Origin: Catajapyx aquilonaris
Taxonomy: Eukaryota
Assembly (NCBI GenBank): GCA_000934665.2
Contig: JYFJ02000469.1
Location: 116,555 to 136,554 of the forward strand
Length of the DNA stretch: 20,000 nucleotides
Direction: 5' to 3'
Position numbers and translations under genes: made by a program. This document shows positions 2,443 through 19,431 of this stretch, piece after piece (positions within the stretch are counted from its first letter, which is position 1; each line of letters starts with the position of its first letter). The notes beneath the pieces were generated by a model, which was not told where the DNA came from, did not search any database, and saw nothing but the letters and a program-made list of their open reading frames with translations.

Positions 2443-2660
2443 TTACAACCCTAAGCGTTTCAGACGCAGCCGGGTGCATTCCTCCACCGCAGGGTTGATG
2501 GAGAGCCGGACCCGGAAGAGGGCTTGCACTGGACACTTGCAGAGAGGGCAAGCGGACAGCTCCAAGCCACACCTCATCCCGAATCGGTGTGCGCAAGGCT
2601 GGAGTATCACACGCAGGTCCTCCTTCTTGCACACTGAGCATTTGTTCTCCTCTTCCTTGA
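2443..2660 (-). CDS. IAP gene terminal exon: degenerate IAP-type RING finger
   Basis: Acceptor tctgttgcag|TC; reads (I)KEEENKCSVCKKEDLRVILQPCAHRFGMRCGLELSACPLCKCPVQALFRVRLS...GL*; Cx2C-x11-CxH...C-x6-CPxC spacing as in IAP RINGs. Confidence 0.85.
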
Positions 2661-5600
2661 CTGCAACAGAATACGCAAGTTAAGCCACATTCATTATATG
2701 GCAGTGAAAACATGAACTATCATTCGCTTTCATCGCATACTGACTGGAGAAAGGGAATGATTGCACACGTTCATTACGGTGATATATGCGACTTACACTT
2801 ACTACTTTTCGGACTGGTTTCAGTCGAAGATGGAGCATCCCCAGGAGTCTCCATCGACTGGCTGCTGAAATGGAAACGTAATATTAGGCCTGTAATGTTA
2901 TAAAACAATAGGCTGACTCACCTGGCGTCATCCAGTTTCTCATTATCTCCAGCCGCTTGCTCGTCAGCAATCACCTCACCTTCAGCCTCCTGATCTACTA
3001 CCAGCTCTGTTGCCTCGCTCAGCTCCTCTGCAGCATCCACTTCCTCCGCCAGTTCTACTGCCAGTTCTTTTGCCTCGGCCAGATCCTTTTCTGCAGCCTC
3101 AACTTCCTCCCAATCTACCATGAGCAATGCCTTGGCCAGCTGCTCTGTAGCCTCAACATCCTCCCAATCTACCATGAGTATTGCCTTGGCCAGCTGCTCA
3201 GCAGCCTCAACTTCCTCTCGATCGACTGGAAGCGCTTTTGCCTCGACCAGCTCCTCTGCAGTCTCCACTTCCTTTGCCAGTTCTTTTGCCTCGGCCAGCT
3301 CCTTTTCTGCAGCCTCACCTTCCTCCCGATCTACCATGAGCTTTGCCTCGGCTAGCTCCTCTGCAGCCTCCACTTCCTCCTGATCTACCGTTGGCTTTGC
3401 CTCGGCCAGCTCCTTCTGTGCAGCCTCCACTTCCTCCTGATCTACTGTGAGCTTTGCCTCGGCCAGCTGCTCTGCATTCTCCACTTCCTCCCGATCTACT
3501 GCCATATCTTTAACCTCAGCCAGCTCCTTCTGTGCAGCCTCCACTTCCTCCTGATCTACTGTGAGCTTTGCCTGGGCCAACTCCTCCTGTGCAGCCTCAA
3601 CTTCCTCCCGATCTACCATGAGCTTTGCCTTGGCCAGCTCCTCTGCAGCCNNNCCGATCTACCATGAGCTTTATCTCGGCCAGCTCCTTCTCTGCAGCCT
3701 CCGCTTCCTCCTGAACTACTGCCAGCTCTTTTGCTTCAGCCAGCCTCTTCTCTGCAGCCTCCACTTCCTCCCGATCTACCATGAGCTTTATCTCGGCCAG
3801 CTCCTTCTCTGCAGCCTCCACTTCCTCCCGTTCCTCTTCATTCCACAGCATCTCCGCCAGGGTAGCCGCGCAATCAAACATTCTTCTCTCCTCCTCCATC
3901 CTCTTCCTCACCACCTTTCTGACCAGATCCCGCTTGAACCCCATTCCTGCAACCTTCTTCACCATGTCTGACCTCAGCCACACCTCCAGGCCCACATCTG
4001 GCATTTTATACCTCCCTCGCACATCCTTCACAAACTGCGTACCTTGAATCATTGCGACAAAGGGGCAACGAAAGTAAAAGTAGGCATGATCCTTCCAGGG
4101 ATTGTCCAATTCGTTCCAGTTGCGAAGACCGCCTCCACACCAGAAGCACTTCACGTGGTCGCCCAGCCGAGTGTAGAAGAACCCAGCTGCAGCTAGGGCT
4201 CTTGGTTTCTGAACCCTTTTCAGGGGCCAGTCACGAAAGGTGTCCAGACGGGACAGAATGTGGGTATAGCAGACAAAGCGAGGCTCCATGTGCTCTGGGG
4301 TTCTCACTACTGGAGGAGAAACATTGCTCCGGTATGGATAAACATCATGAGTAACCTTCGCTGGAAGAGGGCAAATAGGCAAGTGTGAATTTTGAACAAT
4401 TGAAAGCAATGGTAGGTACAAGCTCTTCAAAACCACTGCAGTTCCTTCCATAAGCTCACCTTTCTCCTCGGGTGTTTGCGGGTCAAGGGGTTGCACATGC
4501 TCATGCAGAAACTTCCGTTCAAATTCTGGATCCACGAGGTTGAAAAGCAGTGCGTCCCCATCCTTCAAGCCGTAACTCTTCAAGGTTTTCTTCATGTCCC
4601 TCAGCCGGATGGTGTTGTGAGTCAAATAAAAGTGTGAGGCTGGAATGAGCGACTCCGCCTCAACATAAGTCATTAGCGTTTCGAGATCTAATCCCTCATT
4701 GACTTCCAGCGTGAATGAGATGTATCTCAGGTTGGTAATCAAGATCTTCATCAACGGTTTTTCTGCAAACGAAAAGGAAAATATTCTTTAAAGAAAACAG
4801 TGACAAAGAACCCGTACACATAAAGTACATTTTTGACATGCTCTCTTGTCCTCCATCTGGAAAATATGGATGGAATTTTCGTCCCACTGCTAGTTACTGC
4901 TAAATTAACAGTACCAAGTGTTGACAATGGTACTGTTACATTGATTACTTGATACTAGTGTACGATGGACTTCAGTCTTGGTGTATGAAGGACTTCATAA
5001 GTGACTAACCCCTCGATACGTCTACAGTCATACTGAATCATAAATTATGGGAATGTCTCTTTATTTTTGCCATCACCTGTTCCAGGGCCCAGACGTCCCG
5101 ATTCAAACTGAAGCTCGTCTTCCTCCTCCTCCGAATAATCCCTGTTGCCGCACTCCCCGGTGACAAACGGGCACTTGGGAGCAGCCATCCTATGAGTCTC
5201 CATTGGGTCCTGCCCTTTGTCCCAGTCCCAGATGACATTGGAGCAAAAAGCGCATCTCACAAAGTCCTTCTGCTTCAAGTAAAAGAACCCTGCCCTGGCC
5301 AGTTCCTCAATTTCCATGTAGTCGTTAGGCCACCCTTCATACGTGCTGAGTCTTGTACACTCGTTCTTCAGCGGGTCGTACAGGGTCACCCACTTGCGGT
5401 GCTTGTCATGGGACATGTCGCAATCGGGCTGGCCACGACCAGGCGTACACCTCTTAAGCACAGGCTTGTAAGGTTGTGACACTGTGTGAGGTTTTTCTTC
5501 TTCATCCTCTTCGTCCACTTCGTCCACTTCGTCCGGTCTTACTGAAGGCCAGCAGGGTATGCCGCTGCTCCTTGCAGTTTCCGCCCGCAGTTGAGACAGC

Positions 5601-5897
5601 ATGTATGAAATTCGCATGGCCCCGTCATGCACATTGTAGGCCTCTTCATGCACATTGCGGGCCCCATCTAGGAGATCAGCCACACTGAGCCATTCCGGTC
5701 TTACGCACTCAGGAACAAGGAAGGTAGGTACTGGGGACACAGGCACAAAGAAGCAAGGTCCTAGGAGCTCAGGATTGAACTCCATCCCTATGGAGAAGCA
5801 ATTAATTAATTACAGGCCCCCCAAGTACTTTTGATGGTGATTATTTCTAAACACAAATGGTGCAAATCCTGAGCCTGTGATGGACAGTACCTTCCAT
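2443..5897 (-). CDS. Baculoviral IAP repeat-containing (IAP/BIRC-family) protein, BIR-UBL-BIR-UBA-acidic repeats-RING; join(5897..5891,5787..5077,4762..2922,2864..2803,2660..2443), ~948 aa
   Basis: All four introns are GT-AG and phase-compatible (1,1,2,1). Two BIRs with CxxC...Hx6C, an IAP-type UBA (MGF motif), a C-terminal IAP-spaced RING. The only frame break coincides with the nnn gap at 3651-3653. Confidence 0.8.
2803..2864 (-). CDS. IAP gene 62-nt linker exon (SSQSMETPGDAPSSTETSPKS), not in ORF track
   Basis: Acceptor tttccatttcag, donor A|GTAAGT; bridges the phase-2 upstream donor (AG|GTGAGT at 2921) to the phase-1 RING exon without stops. Confidence 0.75.
2922..4762 (-). CDS. IAP gene large exon: DDI1-like UBL (~4751-4542), BIR (~4268-4056), UBA (~3980-3830), acidic repeat array
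   Basis: Strong acceptor ttttccttttcgtttgcag; ORFs 3597..4754 and 2918..3619 joined across the nnn gap. BIR: RLDTFRDWP..LAAAGFFY..DHVKCFWCGGGLRNW...PWKDHAYFYFRCPFV. UBA: SDMVKKVAGMGFKRDLVRKVV. Confidence 0.85.
2960..3830 (-). repeat. Coding tandem repeat, ~15 units of ~54-63 nt (consensus REEVEAAEKELAEAKLMVD)
   Basis: Recurring + strand motif tgcagcctccacttcctcccgatctaccatgagctttgcctcggccagctcc; unit lengths vary in multiples of 3. Confidence 0.95.
3651..3653. other. Assembly gap (nnn) inside the coding repeat
   Basis: Repeat consensus predicts 11 nt (GAGGAAGTGGA), plus possibly whole units, missing here; the 3-N placeholder causes an apparent frameshift. Confidence 0.85.
5077..5787 (-). 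CDS. IAP gene exon 2: acidic DEVD-containing N-terminus and first BIR (~5371-5162)
   Basis: ORF 5045..5785; BIR: LKNECTRLSTYEGWP..ELARAGFFY...DFVRCAFC...W...DPMETHRMAAPKCPFV. Acceptor ttctccatag (5788); donor ACAG|GTGATG (5076), phase 1. Confidence 0.85.
5891..5897 (-). CDS. Probable start-codon exon of the IAP gene (ATG GAA G)
   Basis: ATGGAAG|GTACTG splices in frame to GG ATG GAG (M-E-G-M-E-F); ATG at 5785 is an alternative start. Confidence 0.45.
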
Positions 5898-5959
5898 CCT
5901 GAAGCAAGCAGACAAAGGAAATGTCAGTTGAAGCAGACAACAGCAGCGCCAGATGGTGA

Positions 5960-8370: not shown

Positions 8371-10043
<1,673 letters not shown>

Positions 10044-12870: not shown

Positions 12871-13060
12871 ACAGGAGGGAGGGAGAGGGGGGGGGGGGGC
12901 ANGGGGGGGCAATGAGTTCTACAGTGAATGGGGAGGGAGGGAGGGTACCAACTGCCACGTAGAGTTGGATGAGTCACGGCTGCCATTGGCCAATTCCATG
13001 TCACGTGGGGATGCGGGGGTGATCGGTGATTGGAGCAGGTTGGGGGAAGATGGCGCTGCT
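12871..13060 (-). promoter_or_regulatory. Putative ARF1 promoter
   Basis: G-tracts 12873-12945, TGCCACGT 12953-12960, TGAGTCA 12970-12976, ATTGGCCAAT 12985-12994, GTCACGTGG 13000-13008, ATTGG 13029. Confidence 0.5.
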
Positions 13061-16070: not shown

Positions 16071-16540
16071 CTAGAGCAGAGTTCCCTCCGGTTTCCCCCA
16101 TAACACTATTGTTGTGTACGCTCCCGAAGGAGCTGCATTGTTGAGACACTTTTCCACTTTCTCCACCGGCTCGGTGGATATAGCGACATTGACGTCTCTA
16201 AACACATTGTTCTGCTGCTTCTCCGCCTGGAGATTTTGATTGAGTTTGGCATTGGCAGCATTCTTGCTGTCCACTGTCACCACCTGCTGGTAGTGCGGCT
16301 CCTGAAGAAGCCGGTGAGACTTGGAGAAGTGGTGTTGGCGCCGCACCTCCATGGCTTTCTGGTGTCTCTTGCTGTCCTTCCGTAGCATCCGGACAGCCAG
16401 CACAACCAGCAGTATGAGAATAAAGATTCCGCAGATGGGCACAGCAATAGTAGCCGCCTTGAACCACACATCCTGTCGCAAGGCTGCGTCCTGTCCAAAG
16501 TAGGATGAACCATCATTGCTGCCGCTTCCACCTGACACAC
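16071..16540 (-). CDS. BAMBI: BAMBI terminal exon: transmembrane helix and cytoplasmic tail
   Basis: Acceptor ttgttgtttcag|GT; WFKAATIAVPI motif then hydrophobic helix; TAG at 16073-16071. Confidence 0.93.
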
Positions 16541-19431
16541 CTGAAACAACAACAATACATTAATCACAATTGAATAAAAATGGTGCGGTTCCAATACTAC
16601 AGCACATTTGCACCTGTTCTTTCCTCATAATTATGCATGGAACAGAGCACTTGGTGGAGTATCAATATTTGCCCAGACCATTCTTTGAGGGGACAAAAGG
16701 TGAGTGATGTTGATAATCTGGCGGCAGCCCATGGGCCCATTGTGTCCCATTGTGAGCCGCATTACTTCCCAATCCCAAGGATGTTTTGGGGGGCTGACAA
16801 GCCGGGGCTTCTAAAGGGGGGACGTTTCAATAAGTGGCCTTCTTGTAGGAGGCCCTTAGAGGCCATAGTCGGGCATCAAGCGCAGGTCCAATGGGCCTTG
16901 CGTGCCCGGGTGCATTAGAGCGGACGGGCGCCCCTCGAGCTGCCGGAGGGGGTCAGCCTGGGTCATTGCTTTCGGTTGCTGCTTTGCCTGCCAAGCCCCC
17001 ACGTGAAGGGCCTCACAACTAACTTGGAGGAAGAAGCAGGACAACAACAACAAAAAAAAAGTCGGGTGAAGAGGAGGAATTTTCTTCAGGTAGTTGCATG
17101 GCGCGGGGTGGTTTTGTTTCGTCCCTTTTTCAGTTTTTTTTCGCAGGCAAGTACCGGTACTGCCGCAATTTGAAGGGTCAAAGCCGTGATAACTCCTGCT
17201 GGTGTCATTTTGAGAAAGTTTACCATGTTTTCTAAAGGTGTGCTGATGCGCCGGCTATGCTAATACCTGTGGGAAAATACTAATCGCGAGGTGAATTTTT
17301 AATTACCCCGTTTGATTGCAATGCTGATGGCGTGCATGAATCCCGACTATAAATTGCAAGGATGGCCAGGTTCTTGCTCAAGGACGAGGTGTTTTTTAAG
17401 GAACAAAATGGGCCGAATCTGACTAGCCTGGGCATCAAATTGAATTATCAATTAACTCAAAAAAAATGCCTAGCGTCCTATGTTATAGGACACTTGTACT
17501 GTTATTCATTTTCTCACATGAAAACGAAAATTATGTTAAAGATTAAACAAAACAAAAAAATCTGGCATATCTGAGTTAATAAGTGGACAGATAGTTCTTT
17601 TAAAATTATTGCTGGAGTGAGCAATTAGGCAAGTGGCTACTCAATTATCAATTACAATTAGCTGAAGTGTCTATTGTGTGTGCAACATTATTGGGGCGAC
17701 ATGTTACACATTTGCTGATTTGCACCATATGTCACCACTGATAAGGTTGTGTACAATACACATTGTGGTTGATAAGAGGCTGATGCAACCTTTATGAGTG
17801 TATACGAACAAGTCTATTCCTGCACCAAGTTATCGCTGAATTATCCCCTCGTGCTTGCCTTGCACATTTTGGGGCAACCACAGGCCCGTGCAGAATGGGT
17901 CGCCCTATGCCAAATAATATTTCTGGCAGCTGCCAGACCATTTTCTGGGGGCGGACGCAACAAAACTGACAAAGGGGGGCAGTTATCGCCCGGCAGACTC
18001 GTCTCCGCCATTAGAAGGCCCGGCTAAAAGGGTCGGGGGAAGAAGATTTTTATTACCTAGTCTTGAGAAGGTGATGGCGGGTCTGTGGTGGGCCATACCC
18101 CACGGGGGGTATTTCGGCTCAAGGGGGGAAGAATCCACGGGGTTGGAGGCAAAAACCAACAGCGGATAACAAAGCGTGGTAACCCCCCCATGCCAGATGG
18201 AAATGCATCATCCCCAAGCTGCAGAAGGCCCCTGCTTGCCCTAATGGGGGTCACTTTTCGAGGTCTCATGTCAGCTCCCAGAGTGCATTCGCCTTTGGAT
18301 GGTAAAAGAAAGAAGAGGGGACCACCCCCCGGGAATGTTTACTTGCTGGAAAGACTCACCAGTGTAACTTTCGTTGAGCTTGGTCACCTGGATCCAGATC
18401 TCCAGATTGCCGCTGTAGTTGCACATGTCTTCGTTACAGCACATGAGCGAGGGACTAACTCTTGCTTTGGCATTGGGATGAGTGATGCATTCGTTGGATG
18501 GCCTGGAAGAGAAATGAATTAGTTGAATATTAATTAAGCGAGAATTACATAGTAGGGTTCTACATGTTGGACACTTGTACAATTGTGTATACAATGCAAA
18601 CAGCTAAACAACAAAATAGTGAGTTTCCAATGGAGCATCCACTTTAATGCTCATGTAATGCTCTTTTAATGTTTTTGTTGCTAAAAGCATCGAAAAAACA
18701 TTACAGGAGCATCACAAGAGCATTAACAATTGATGTTCTATGAGAAACTCAGTAGTGATGCTCTTTTAATGCTCTGATGATGCTCTTGTGGTGTTCCTGT
18801 AATGTTTTTTGATACTTTTTAGCAACCAAACATTACAAGAGCATCACAAGAGCATTTAAAATGTGTTTTTCTATGGCTGATGCTCTTTTTGACGTTAATG
18901 CTTCTTGGGGCATTTCGGTTTGCAGTGTAGTTATTGCGTTAGTTCGCCATTTGATCATTAAAAATAGATTTTTAAATTATTCGGGCATATCTGGGTTAAG
19001 GACAAAATATCGTGGGCATAAGCACACATTTCATGCAAGTCTGACAATGCGGCGCGTGATCTGCCCACGATCTACTCAAAGAGCACGGGAGTAAACAAAC
19101 TGCACAGTCCCAAGGCATTTTTTTCTTCTTCTTATACTGCACTGTCAGCATACTTGTACACATAATTACAGTCCGCCTGCTTCTAATAGCCATCCCACGT
19201 TGCAACGGTTTGATTGATTTTGGCCTTCTTTGCCAAAAGTGGCCTTGCTTCTAAGAAACCCTTGGCAACAAAATGTGATCCCTCACCTGGAGATGAGCTC
19301 GAGGCATCCATGCCTTGTTTTGCTGAGATCCGAGTGATCCACCACTTCCGAGAAGCAAGTCCCCTGGGCCGACTTGCACATGTAACCGGTGCTCACACAA
19401 GCCGGGAGGTTGCAGGAGCATCTGATGTCAC
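16071..19431 (-). CDS. BAMBI: BMP and activin membrane-bound inhibitor (BAMBI), 5'-partial; join(19431..19287,18502..18360,16540..16071)
   Basis: DIRCSCNLPACVSTGYMCKS...CFS...HGCL, CCNEDMCNY, VWFKAATIAVPICGIFILILLVVLAVRMLR match BAMBI signature motifs; splice phases 1/2/1 are consistent; no kinase domain. Confidence 0.93.
18360..18502 (-). CDS. BAMBI: BAMBI ectodomain exon with cysteine box (CCNEDMCNY)
   Basis: Acceptor catttctcttccag|G; donor G|GTGAGT at 18359. Confidence 0.9.
18592..18927. mobile_element. Non-autonomous CACT-type (EnSpm/CMC-like) DNA element in a BAMBI intron
   Basis: Ends CAATGCAAAC / GTTTGCAGTG flanked by TA; many direct and inverted copies of gagcatcacaagagcatt / gatgctcttttaatg; related copy at 6258-6387. 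Confidence 0.65.
19287..19431 (-). CDS. BAMBI: BAMBI first ectodomain exon (not in ORF track)
   Basis: cag|GT GAC ATC AGA TGC...; (G)DIRCSCNLPACVSTGYMCKSAQGTCFSEVVDHSDLSKTRHGCLELIS(R); donor AG|GTGAGG at 19286. Confidence 0.92.

Follow-up and report, generated by a model that had tools for sequence, protein, structure and literature searches.

A Putative Inhibitor of Apoptosis Gene of Catajapyx aquilonaris With a DDI-Type Ubiquitin-Like Domain Between Its BIR Domains

Gene Structure and Domain Architecture

A stretch of 20,000 nucleotides (nt) of Catajapyx aquilonaris DNA (GenBank assembly GCA_000934665.2, contig JYFJ02000469.1, positions 116,555 to 136,554 of the forward strand), referred to here as the window, carries a multi-exon gene of the inhibitor of apoptosis protein (IAP) family on its minus strand. 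The gene occupies window positions 2443-5897, and its introns are 57-314 nt long and of the GT..AG type. Very probably, this is a real, spliced and lineage-restricted IAP gene of cIAP/DIAP-like layout (BIR-BIR-UBA-RING), with a ubiquitin-like (UBL) domain of the DDI1/DDI2 type between the BIRs, a long acidic helical repeat of 19-residue units, and a RING that has diverged from the form usual in the family. The order BIR-UBL-BIR-UBA-repeats-RING had been proposed in an initial annotation of the window and is present in the sequence, with a RING of variant type.

Four exons (5785-5077, 4762-2922, 2864-2803, and 2660-2443) are compatible in phase and comprise at least 941 codons, the sole stop being terminal. 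Exon 1 extends from the ATG at 5785-5783 to 5077 (709 nt) and closes in phase 1. From 4762, a single frame remains open until an NNN at 3653-3651; its 369 codons encode the UBL domain, the second BIR (BIR2), the UBA domain, and the first repeats. Exon 1 joined to exon 2 up to this gap gives 1818 nt, or 606 codons with no stops. Past the gap, the remainder of exon 2, the mini-exon at 2864-2803, and the RING exon supply 336 codons, in which the only stop is the terminal TAA (2445-2443). The 62-nt mini-exon is needed because the RING exon would otherwise be out of frame. The joined coordinates bear out the exons and phases as first described, and the single protein of about 950 residues that they were said to encode is right as a minimum.

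Both BIRs are intact, as originally proposed. The Pfam BIR family matches the first (BIR1; exon 1, residues 145-208) at 2.3e-18 and BIR2 at 3.8e-20, and the zinc site CX2C-X16-H-X6-C, read from the translation, is complete in each. With two BIRs that carry the full zinc site, the protein belongs to the IAP (BIR-containing) family. The best single-domain matches of BIR1 in the PDB are BIR1 chains of cIAP1 and DIAP1 (7e-14 to 3e-13). BIR2 matches DIAP1 BIR2 (1jd4, 3.2e-25) and cIAP1 chains (about 4e-22), and AlphaFold2 (AF2) models it with a predicted local distance difference test score (pLDDT) of 93-98. BIR1 and BIR2 do not stem from a recent duplication, because they are only 34% identical. 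No second copy of a BIR, UBL, or RING was found elsewhere in the window.

A predicted UBA domain follows the last BIR, as in cIAP-type proteins. The segment matches Pfam DUF1421, a UBA-like family, with 23.7 bits (cut-off 22.8), and UBA_BIRC2-3 weakly (14.4 bits, cut-off 27.2); it is helical in the AF2 model (pLDDT 82-97). The acidic region that comes next is repetitive, with a period of 57 nt (19 residues), 14.7 copies, and 74% matches at 3010-3830 according to Tandem Repeats Finder (TRF). About 15 acidic, Glu/Ala-rich units of 19 residues are seen, the first of which are helical in the AF2 model (pLDDT 77-86). The NNN at 3651-3653 falls within these coding repeats, and the reading frame changes across it. 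A true frameshift at this point was rejected: the repeat register and the 57-nt period fit an assembly gap with 11 + 57n nt of repeat missing, so that the length of the protein is only a minimum. A single N is also present in the window at 12902.

The Ubiquitin-Like Domain

Pfam ubiquitin (PF00240) matches residues 6-72 of exon 2 with an E-value of 3.3e-5 and 24.0 bits. When the UBL segment (4751-4542) is compared with all PDB sequences by phmmer, the best match is the UBL of human DDI2 (2n7d, E 1.8e-6), followed by that of mouse DDI1 (1v5o, 9.7e-6); the next matches are ubiquitin variants at E 0.2-0.9. A manual count of the alignment with DDI2 gives 22 identical residues in 64 aligned positions. 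These comparisons support the identity of the segment as a UBL, apparently of the DDI1/2 kind specifically.

In a single-sequence AF2 model of low confidence (pLDDT 58), the secondary-structure elements follow the order strand-strand-helix-strand-strand-short helix-strand, which equals the order of the element list given for the hDdi2 UBL in an excerpt of the corresponding paper (PMC4962041). ESM Atlas features of the UBL part lead to ubiquitin-type families and clusters at 0.83-0.87, a lead only, and an ESM Atlas query of the UBL with BIR2 gave no usable match. A complex prediction of the UBA (250-315) with the UBL (1-82) scored 0.00.

Splicing of the BIR1-UBL Junction and DNA Contiguity

Sequencing contigs of three runs with the same organism label were compared with positions 3850-5900: X1 and X4, which are DNA runs, and X5, the kind of which is not on record. 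A 279-nt contig of X5 joins 5257-5077 directly to 4762-4665 and reaches 98 nt into the UBL segment. It omits exactly the 314 nt at 4763-5076, the ends of which read CT..AC on the plus strand, that is, GT..AG on the strand of the gene. Contigs joining 5077 to 4762 number zero in X1 and X4. The X5 contig thus confirms the 5077/4762 junction that had been predicted. Within 3850-5900, X5 covers exon parts and the high-copy intronic repeat only, and judged from this coverage the run behaves as cDNA would. The depth of its contigs is 2.4-3.2, and that of the spliced contig itself is 2.4.

In the DNA runs, a single contig spans 3850-4897 without gaps or differences, and the UBL, BIR2, and UBA are therefore contiguous in DNA. 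The high-copy repeat breaks the DNA contigs at 4897-4985, and the linkage of exon 1 to exon 2 at the DNA level rests on the assembly.

The 5′ end of the gene may lie further upstream. One X5 contig (record 23), which covers 5639-5789, carries three loose letters at its 5′ end; splicing of an upstream exon that ends in AG to 5787 would leave such letters. This contig end gives a weak hint of a putative mini-exon at 5897-5891, which had been proposed at the outset.

The Variant RING Domain

The initial annotation placed a RING at the C-terminus. The assignment stands in that Pfam zf-C3HC4_3 matches above its cut-off (30.9 bits, cut-off 27), but the domain departs from the canonical form. Seven of the eight canonical ligands are retained; the Cys at ligand 5 is missing, the chain is one residue shorter there, and the full C3HC4 pattern is not matched. 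Ligand 5 is part of the first zinc site. The tail after Cys8 is also unusual, with 31 residues rather than the usual 13. A full C3HC4 pattern is found in the last 90 residues of 124 of 160 relatives, only its start in 2, and none of it in 34. In 109 of the 124 relatives with a full RING, the tail extends exactly 13 residues past Cys8, 18 fewer than here, and the longest is 23. An extra Cys stands two residues past Cys8 (C-x2-C-x-C, 2521-2540, minus strand) and is present in the tails of none of 44 aligned relatives. The tail of IAP RINGs is important for dimerisation and for binding the ubiquitin-loaded conjugating enzyme (E2~Ub).

Judged by its sequence, the domain lacks both the full set of eight ligands and the short tail of RING-type IAPs and is best called a variant RING. 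Its alteration would fit a protein that depends less on a ubiquitin ligase (E3) activity of its own, a possibility raised in the initial annotation, and would fit relaxed constraint equally well.

A Candidate Intron and the Origin of the UBL Unit

The 99 nt directly after the UBL (4459-4361) are a candidate intron or, alternatively, an in-frame linker. They begin with a good donor (AAG/GTGAGC) and contain a pyrimidine tract and an acceptor. Their G+C content (GC) of 0.42 is near that of the introns (0.35-0.40), the exons having 0.47-0.58, and in the AF2 model the encoded residues have a pLDDT below 50. The segment is open and divisible by three, and the frame is kept whether it is spliced or unspliced. 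If it is an intron, the UBL sits on a 303-nt symmetric exon of phase 1-1. Symmetric phase 1-1 exons are a class discussed in connection with exon shuffling, as an excerpt of PMC8001218 has it.

The UBL may have been acquired in this way, a phase-1 intron between BIR exons receiving the 303-nt UBL-coding unit. We regard such an origin by exon shuffling as evenly balanced. The points in its favor are that the UBL has a Met of its own at its start, four codons past the acceptor, that the unit would be of phase 1-1 if the candidate intron is real, and that the GC of the UBL-coding segment (0.469) is the lowest among the coding exons.

Intron 1 holds a very high-copy repeat at about 4816-5022, which is 50-250 nt upstream of the UBL exon. 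In the DNA runs X1 and X4, the summed word depth at 4816-4953 is 14,000-50,000 vs. 17-34 in the flanks. Hundreds of other contigs contain matches of 90-95% to two short segments of it, which lie at about 4864-4917 and 4956-5017. No inverted repeats were found in 4700-5100.

Relatives and Published Architectures

A search of a representative library returned 7,333 matches, the best 150 of which are all BIR proteins with 31-46% identity. A word-index search among proteins of near length found seven BIR proteins (37-50% identity over 21-41% of the query), none of which has a ubiquitin family listed; among longer proteins, the same kind of search found no homologue, and with the UBL region (1-100) as query it gave no match. 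The UBL, alone or with the linker, matched none of the 157 nearest BIR proteins by phmmer (0/157, best E 0.82). In ten clusters that were looked up, the named members are from ticks, bivalves, amphioxus, a mosquito, and two bacterial metagenome-assembled genomes (MAGs). Two of the four best-scoring BIR relatives (P0008 and P0011) are multi-BIR “RING-HC finger proteins” of 1,371-1,406 residues from bacterial MAGs. Their source is Candidatus Endonucleobacter of deep-sea mussels, and they are animal-type IAPs encoded in a bacterium.

A 2026 survey, as far as its available text goes, sorts 2,843 IAPs from 312 species into 121 architectures (PMC13159474). The terms “ubiquitin-like,” “UBL,” and “UBQ” are absent from the main text of that article. 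Its supplement, with its interdomain tables, was searched as text (1.95 million characters from a 12.6-MB zip); IPR001370 occurs 6,237 times and “Ubiquitin-like,” IPR000626, IPR029071, and PF00240 never, although unconverted parts of the file could hold a UBL-bearing IAP. No UBL-type term occurs in the available part of a paper on oyster IAPs (PMC8917759). Literature on BIR together with UBL was found to consist only of BIRC6 papers and unrelated work. The view taken at the outset that no IAP with a UBL is known is not strictly correct, as the armadillo region of BIRC6 contains an inserted UBL according to an excerpt of its description (PMC10827748). In contrast, a RING-type IAP with a DDI-type UBL between its BIRs appears undescribed in the literature and databases searched. 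Because the UBL scores below the Pfam cut-off, similar proteins could escape surveys that rely on domain assignments.

Coordinates and Neighboring Features

Table 1. Segments of the IAP gene, in window positions. A slash marks a splice site.
Feature	Positions	Strand	Basis
Putative first coding mini-exon (ATG + 4 nt)	5891-5897	-	Donor AAG/GTACTG; sequence and splice strings
Exon with ATG, acidic N-terminal region, and BIR1 (~5353-5162)	5077-5785	-	Pfam BIR; X5 contigs 5077-5257 and 5639-5789
Intron 1, 314 nt, GT..AG, GC 0.369	4763-5076	-	Skipped exactly by X5 contig
UBL-coding segment, 303 nt (domain 4751-4542)	4460-4762	-	Pfam; phmmer vs. PDB; GC 0.469
Candidate intron, 99 nt, or in-frame linker	4361-4459	-	Splice strings AAG/GTGAGC ... 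CTCTTCCAG/C; GC 0.424
BIR2	4056-4250	-	Pfam; PDB matches; AF2
Predicted UBA domain with MGF loop	3861-3974	-	Pfam DUF1421; AF2 helices
Acidic E/A-rich 19-residue tandem repeats; exon end at 2922 (CAG/GTGAGT)	2922-3830	-	TRF
Mini-exon, 62 nt	2803-2864	-	Sequence; splice strings; open frame
Last exon: variant RING (~2652-2521), extra tail of 18 residues, stop TAA 2445-2443	2443-2660	-	Pfam zf-C3HC4_3

Elsewhere in the window, an exon of an Arf-family GTPase lies at 9269-9541 on the minus strand (Pfam Arf, 2.1e-17). Two further minus-strand segments, 16071-16559 and 18271-18603, comprise a C-terminal region of BAMBI (Pfam BAMBI_C, 6.7e-15) and an upstream open reading frame with a Cys-rich motif, which may be the BAMBI ectodomain but has no Pfam match. 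The GT..AG introns and these Arf and BAMBI neighbors clearly mark the DNA as that of an animal. The segment 12000-13100 is a G+C-rich island (0.49-0.53, with about 0.40 in its surroundings). Gly-rich frames are open on either strand there and have no Pfam match, and the island may be a CpG-island-like promoter region.

Possible Mechanism and Alternative Explanations

The domain content suggests a link between the clients of the BIRs and the proteasome, on a base of one genome and one low-depth spliced contig. The BIRs would hold clients that bear an IAP-binding motif, such as caspases or IAP antagonists, the UBA would hold ubiquitin chains, and the DDI-type UBL would let the protein attach to the 26S proteasome or to ubiquitin conjugates. 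In this way, the weakened RING would hardly be needed to couple the IAP, or the clients on its BIRs, to degradation. This mechanism is tentative. Taken as a whole, with identity, origin, and mechanism combined, the explanation is one that we slightly favor.

A stronger form, close to that of the initial annotation, makes the protein a substrate-specific proteasome shuttle on an IAP scaffold, in which the BIRs would select, the UBA and UBL would bridge to conjugates or the 26S proteasome, and the RING would be dispensable. The UBL of Ddi2 binds both 26S proteasomes and ubiquitin conjugates, according to an excerpt of PMC9062259, which makes the shuttle idea reasonable; we nevertheless consider it improbable in this full form.

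Several observations weigh against the preferred reading, that of a spliced IAP with a DDI-type UBL that couples BIR clients to degradation. As to the UBL itself, the Pfam ubiquitin score of 24.0 bits is below the curated cut-off of 25.4, and Foldseek with the UBL-alone model (pLDDT 58) gave no PDB match at E ≤ 0.001, the top rows being unrelated. The UBL also has a pLDDT below 50 in the AF2 model of exon 2, which was built from a 29-row alignment in which MAFFT misplaced the upstream BIR of the relatives on the linker. As to the gene, neither the word-index nor the representative-library searches found an orthologue, and the assembly gap falls within the coding repeats. The splice depends on one low-depth contig (2.4) of one run, the kind of which is not on record, and the X5 contigs provide no RNA cover of 3850-4608 or of any downstream junction. 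The missing RING ligand and the long tail may just as well be signs of decay. As to the mechanism, excerpts of PMC4962041 report that the human DDI2 UBL binds ubiquitin weakly in vitro, with a dissociation constant of 0.4-1.1 mM, and that full-length hDdi2 pulled down no di-ubiquitin. Strong attachment to the proteasome is therefore not proven for UBLs of the DDI type.

Two other explanations are each unlikely. The protein could be an active RING E3 that ubiquitylates BIR-bound clients as cIAP and DIAP1 do, the UBL being a cis-acting regulatory or E2-recruiting module that tunes activity or stability. The UBL-bearing E3s Parkin and UHRF1 are models for such an arrangement. Parkin and UHRF1/2 combine a UBL with a RING-type domain in one E3-like protein, and the UBL regulates it or recruits the E2; they are not known to have a BIR or a UBA. 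A catalytic role agrees with intact BIRs and UBA and with a RING that passes its Pfam threshold (30.9 vs. 27), keeps seven of the eight ligands, and has an additional Cys past Cys8, whereas the absence of Cys5 and a tail that exceeds that of 109 of 124 relatives by 18 residues speak against it. BIRC6 also speaks for this reading: its UBL is structural and, in the excerpt of PMC10827748, co-precipitates the E1 enzyme UBA6 and not the proteasome.

The gene could also be a young chimeric paralogue without new function, weakly expressed and drifting, in which the UBL insertion has been tolerated rather than selected. Such drift would suit the altered RING, with its lost ligand and extended tail, the expanded repeats, the X5 contig depth of just 2.4-3.2, and the identity of at most 46% among the best 150 of 7,333 matches, none of which has a UBL. 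Most of the 121 surveyed IAP architectures are, moreover, rare in the available text of PMC13159474. Against mere drift, at least 941 codons over four to five exons are open and in correct phase, the X5 contig is correctly spliced, all BIR zinc ligands are kept, and the UBA is well modelled; BIR1 and BIR2 at 34% identity and repeats at 74% matches indicate that the gene is not very recent.

An artefact of the gene model or assembly, in which the UBL is a usually skipped cassette, two separate genes are present, or exons 1 and 2 are misjoined across the repeat, is highly improbable: DNA contigs do stop in the high-copy repeat at 4897-4985, the frame is also kept if 4762-4460 is skipped, and the assembly has a gap at 3651-3653, but the spliced X5 contig leads from 5077 straight to 4762 and 98 nt into the UBL segment, and the UBL, BIR2, and UBA are held together by a single open frame and a single gap-free DNA contig.

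The readings differ in what they would mean. The known links of IAPs between cell-death control and the ubiquitin system are RING, UBA, or UBC domains. To these, a RING-type IAP with a DDI-type UBL would add a fourth kind of link, in which the protein docks directly on the proteasome or on ubiquitin conjugates. If the shuttle reading is true, the removal of BIR clients would be different in kind from RING-mediated ubiquitylation. The gene would also illustrate exon shuffling cleanly, within a family of immune and apoptosis genes that is expanding, and similar proteins could be hidden in other genomes, their UBL being under the Pfam cut-off. As no more than a drifting paralogue, the gene would be an ordinary product of turnover in the IAP family.

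Comparison With Known Systems

The layout of BIRs, then a UBA, and a C-terminal RING is that of cIAP1/cIAP2 (BIRC2/3), DIAP2, and the BIRC2/3-like IAPs of molluscs. Oyster IAPs of the BIR-BIR-(DD)-UBA-RING type are described in the available part of PMC8917759. Pfam found no CARD or death domain in the exon translations of the present gene. Unlike these proteins, it has a UBL between the BIRs and acidic 19-residue repeats before the RING, and in its RING, unlike that of the cIAP-type IAPs, Cys5 is missing and the tail is long.

The UBL is most similar to those of DDI1/DDI2, and only that module is common to them. It is internal here and N-terminal in DDI1/DDI2, and no family of the retroviral-protease-like (RVP) or helical (HDD) domain was found in the four exon translations (Pfam, E up to 0.1). 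Like yeast Ddi1, which has a UBL and a UBA (excerpts of PMC4962041 and PMC9062259), the present protein combines a UBL with a ubiquitin-binding domain in one chain. Rad23 and Dsk2/ubiquilin likewise carry a UBL and a UBA in one polypeptide, but here these two flank a BIR, and a second BIR and a RING are also present. The layout of UBL-UBA shuttles, with the UBL N-terminal, the UBA C-terminal, and no ligase parts, differs accordingly: the UBL comes after BIR1, and the UBA before the repeats and the RING.

BIRC6 (BRUCE/Apollon) is the one IAP already known with a UBL, a cryptic one (PMC10827748, in excerpt). According to the same excerpt, BIRC6 is a giant E2/E3 of the UBC type, and its UBL, which lies buried in armadillo repeat 26, shapes the dimer and co-precipitates UBA6. 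No UBC domain was matched by Pfam in the exon translations of the C. aquilonaris gene. Unlike that of BIRC6, the UBL described here is a separate module of apparent DDI type in a small IAP of the RING type.

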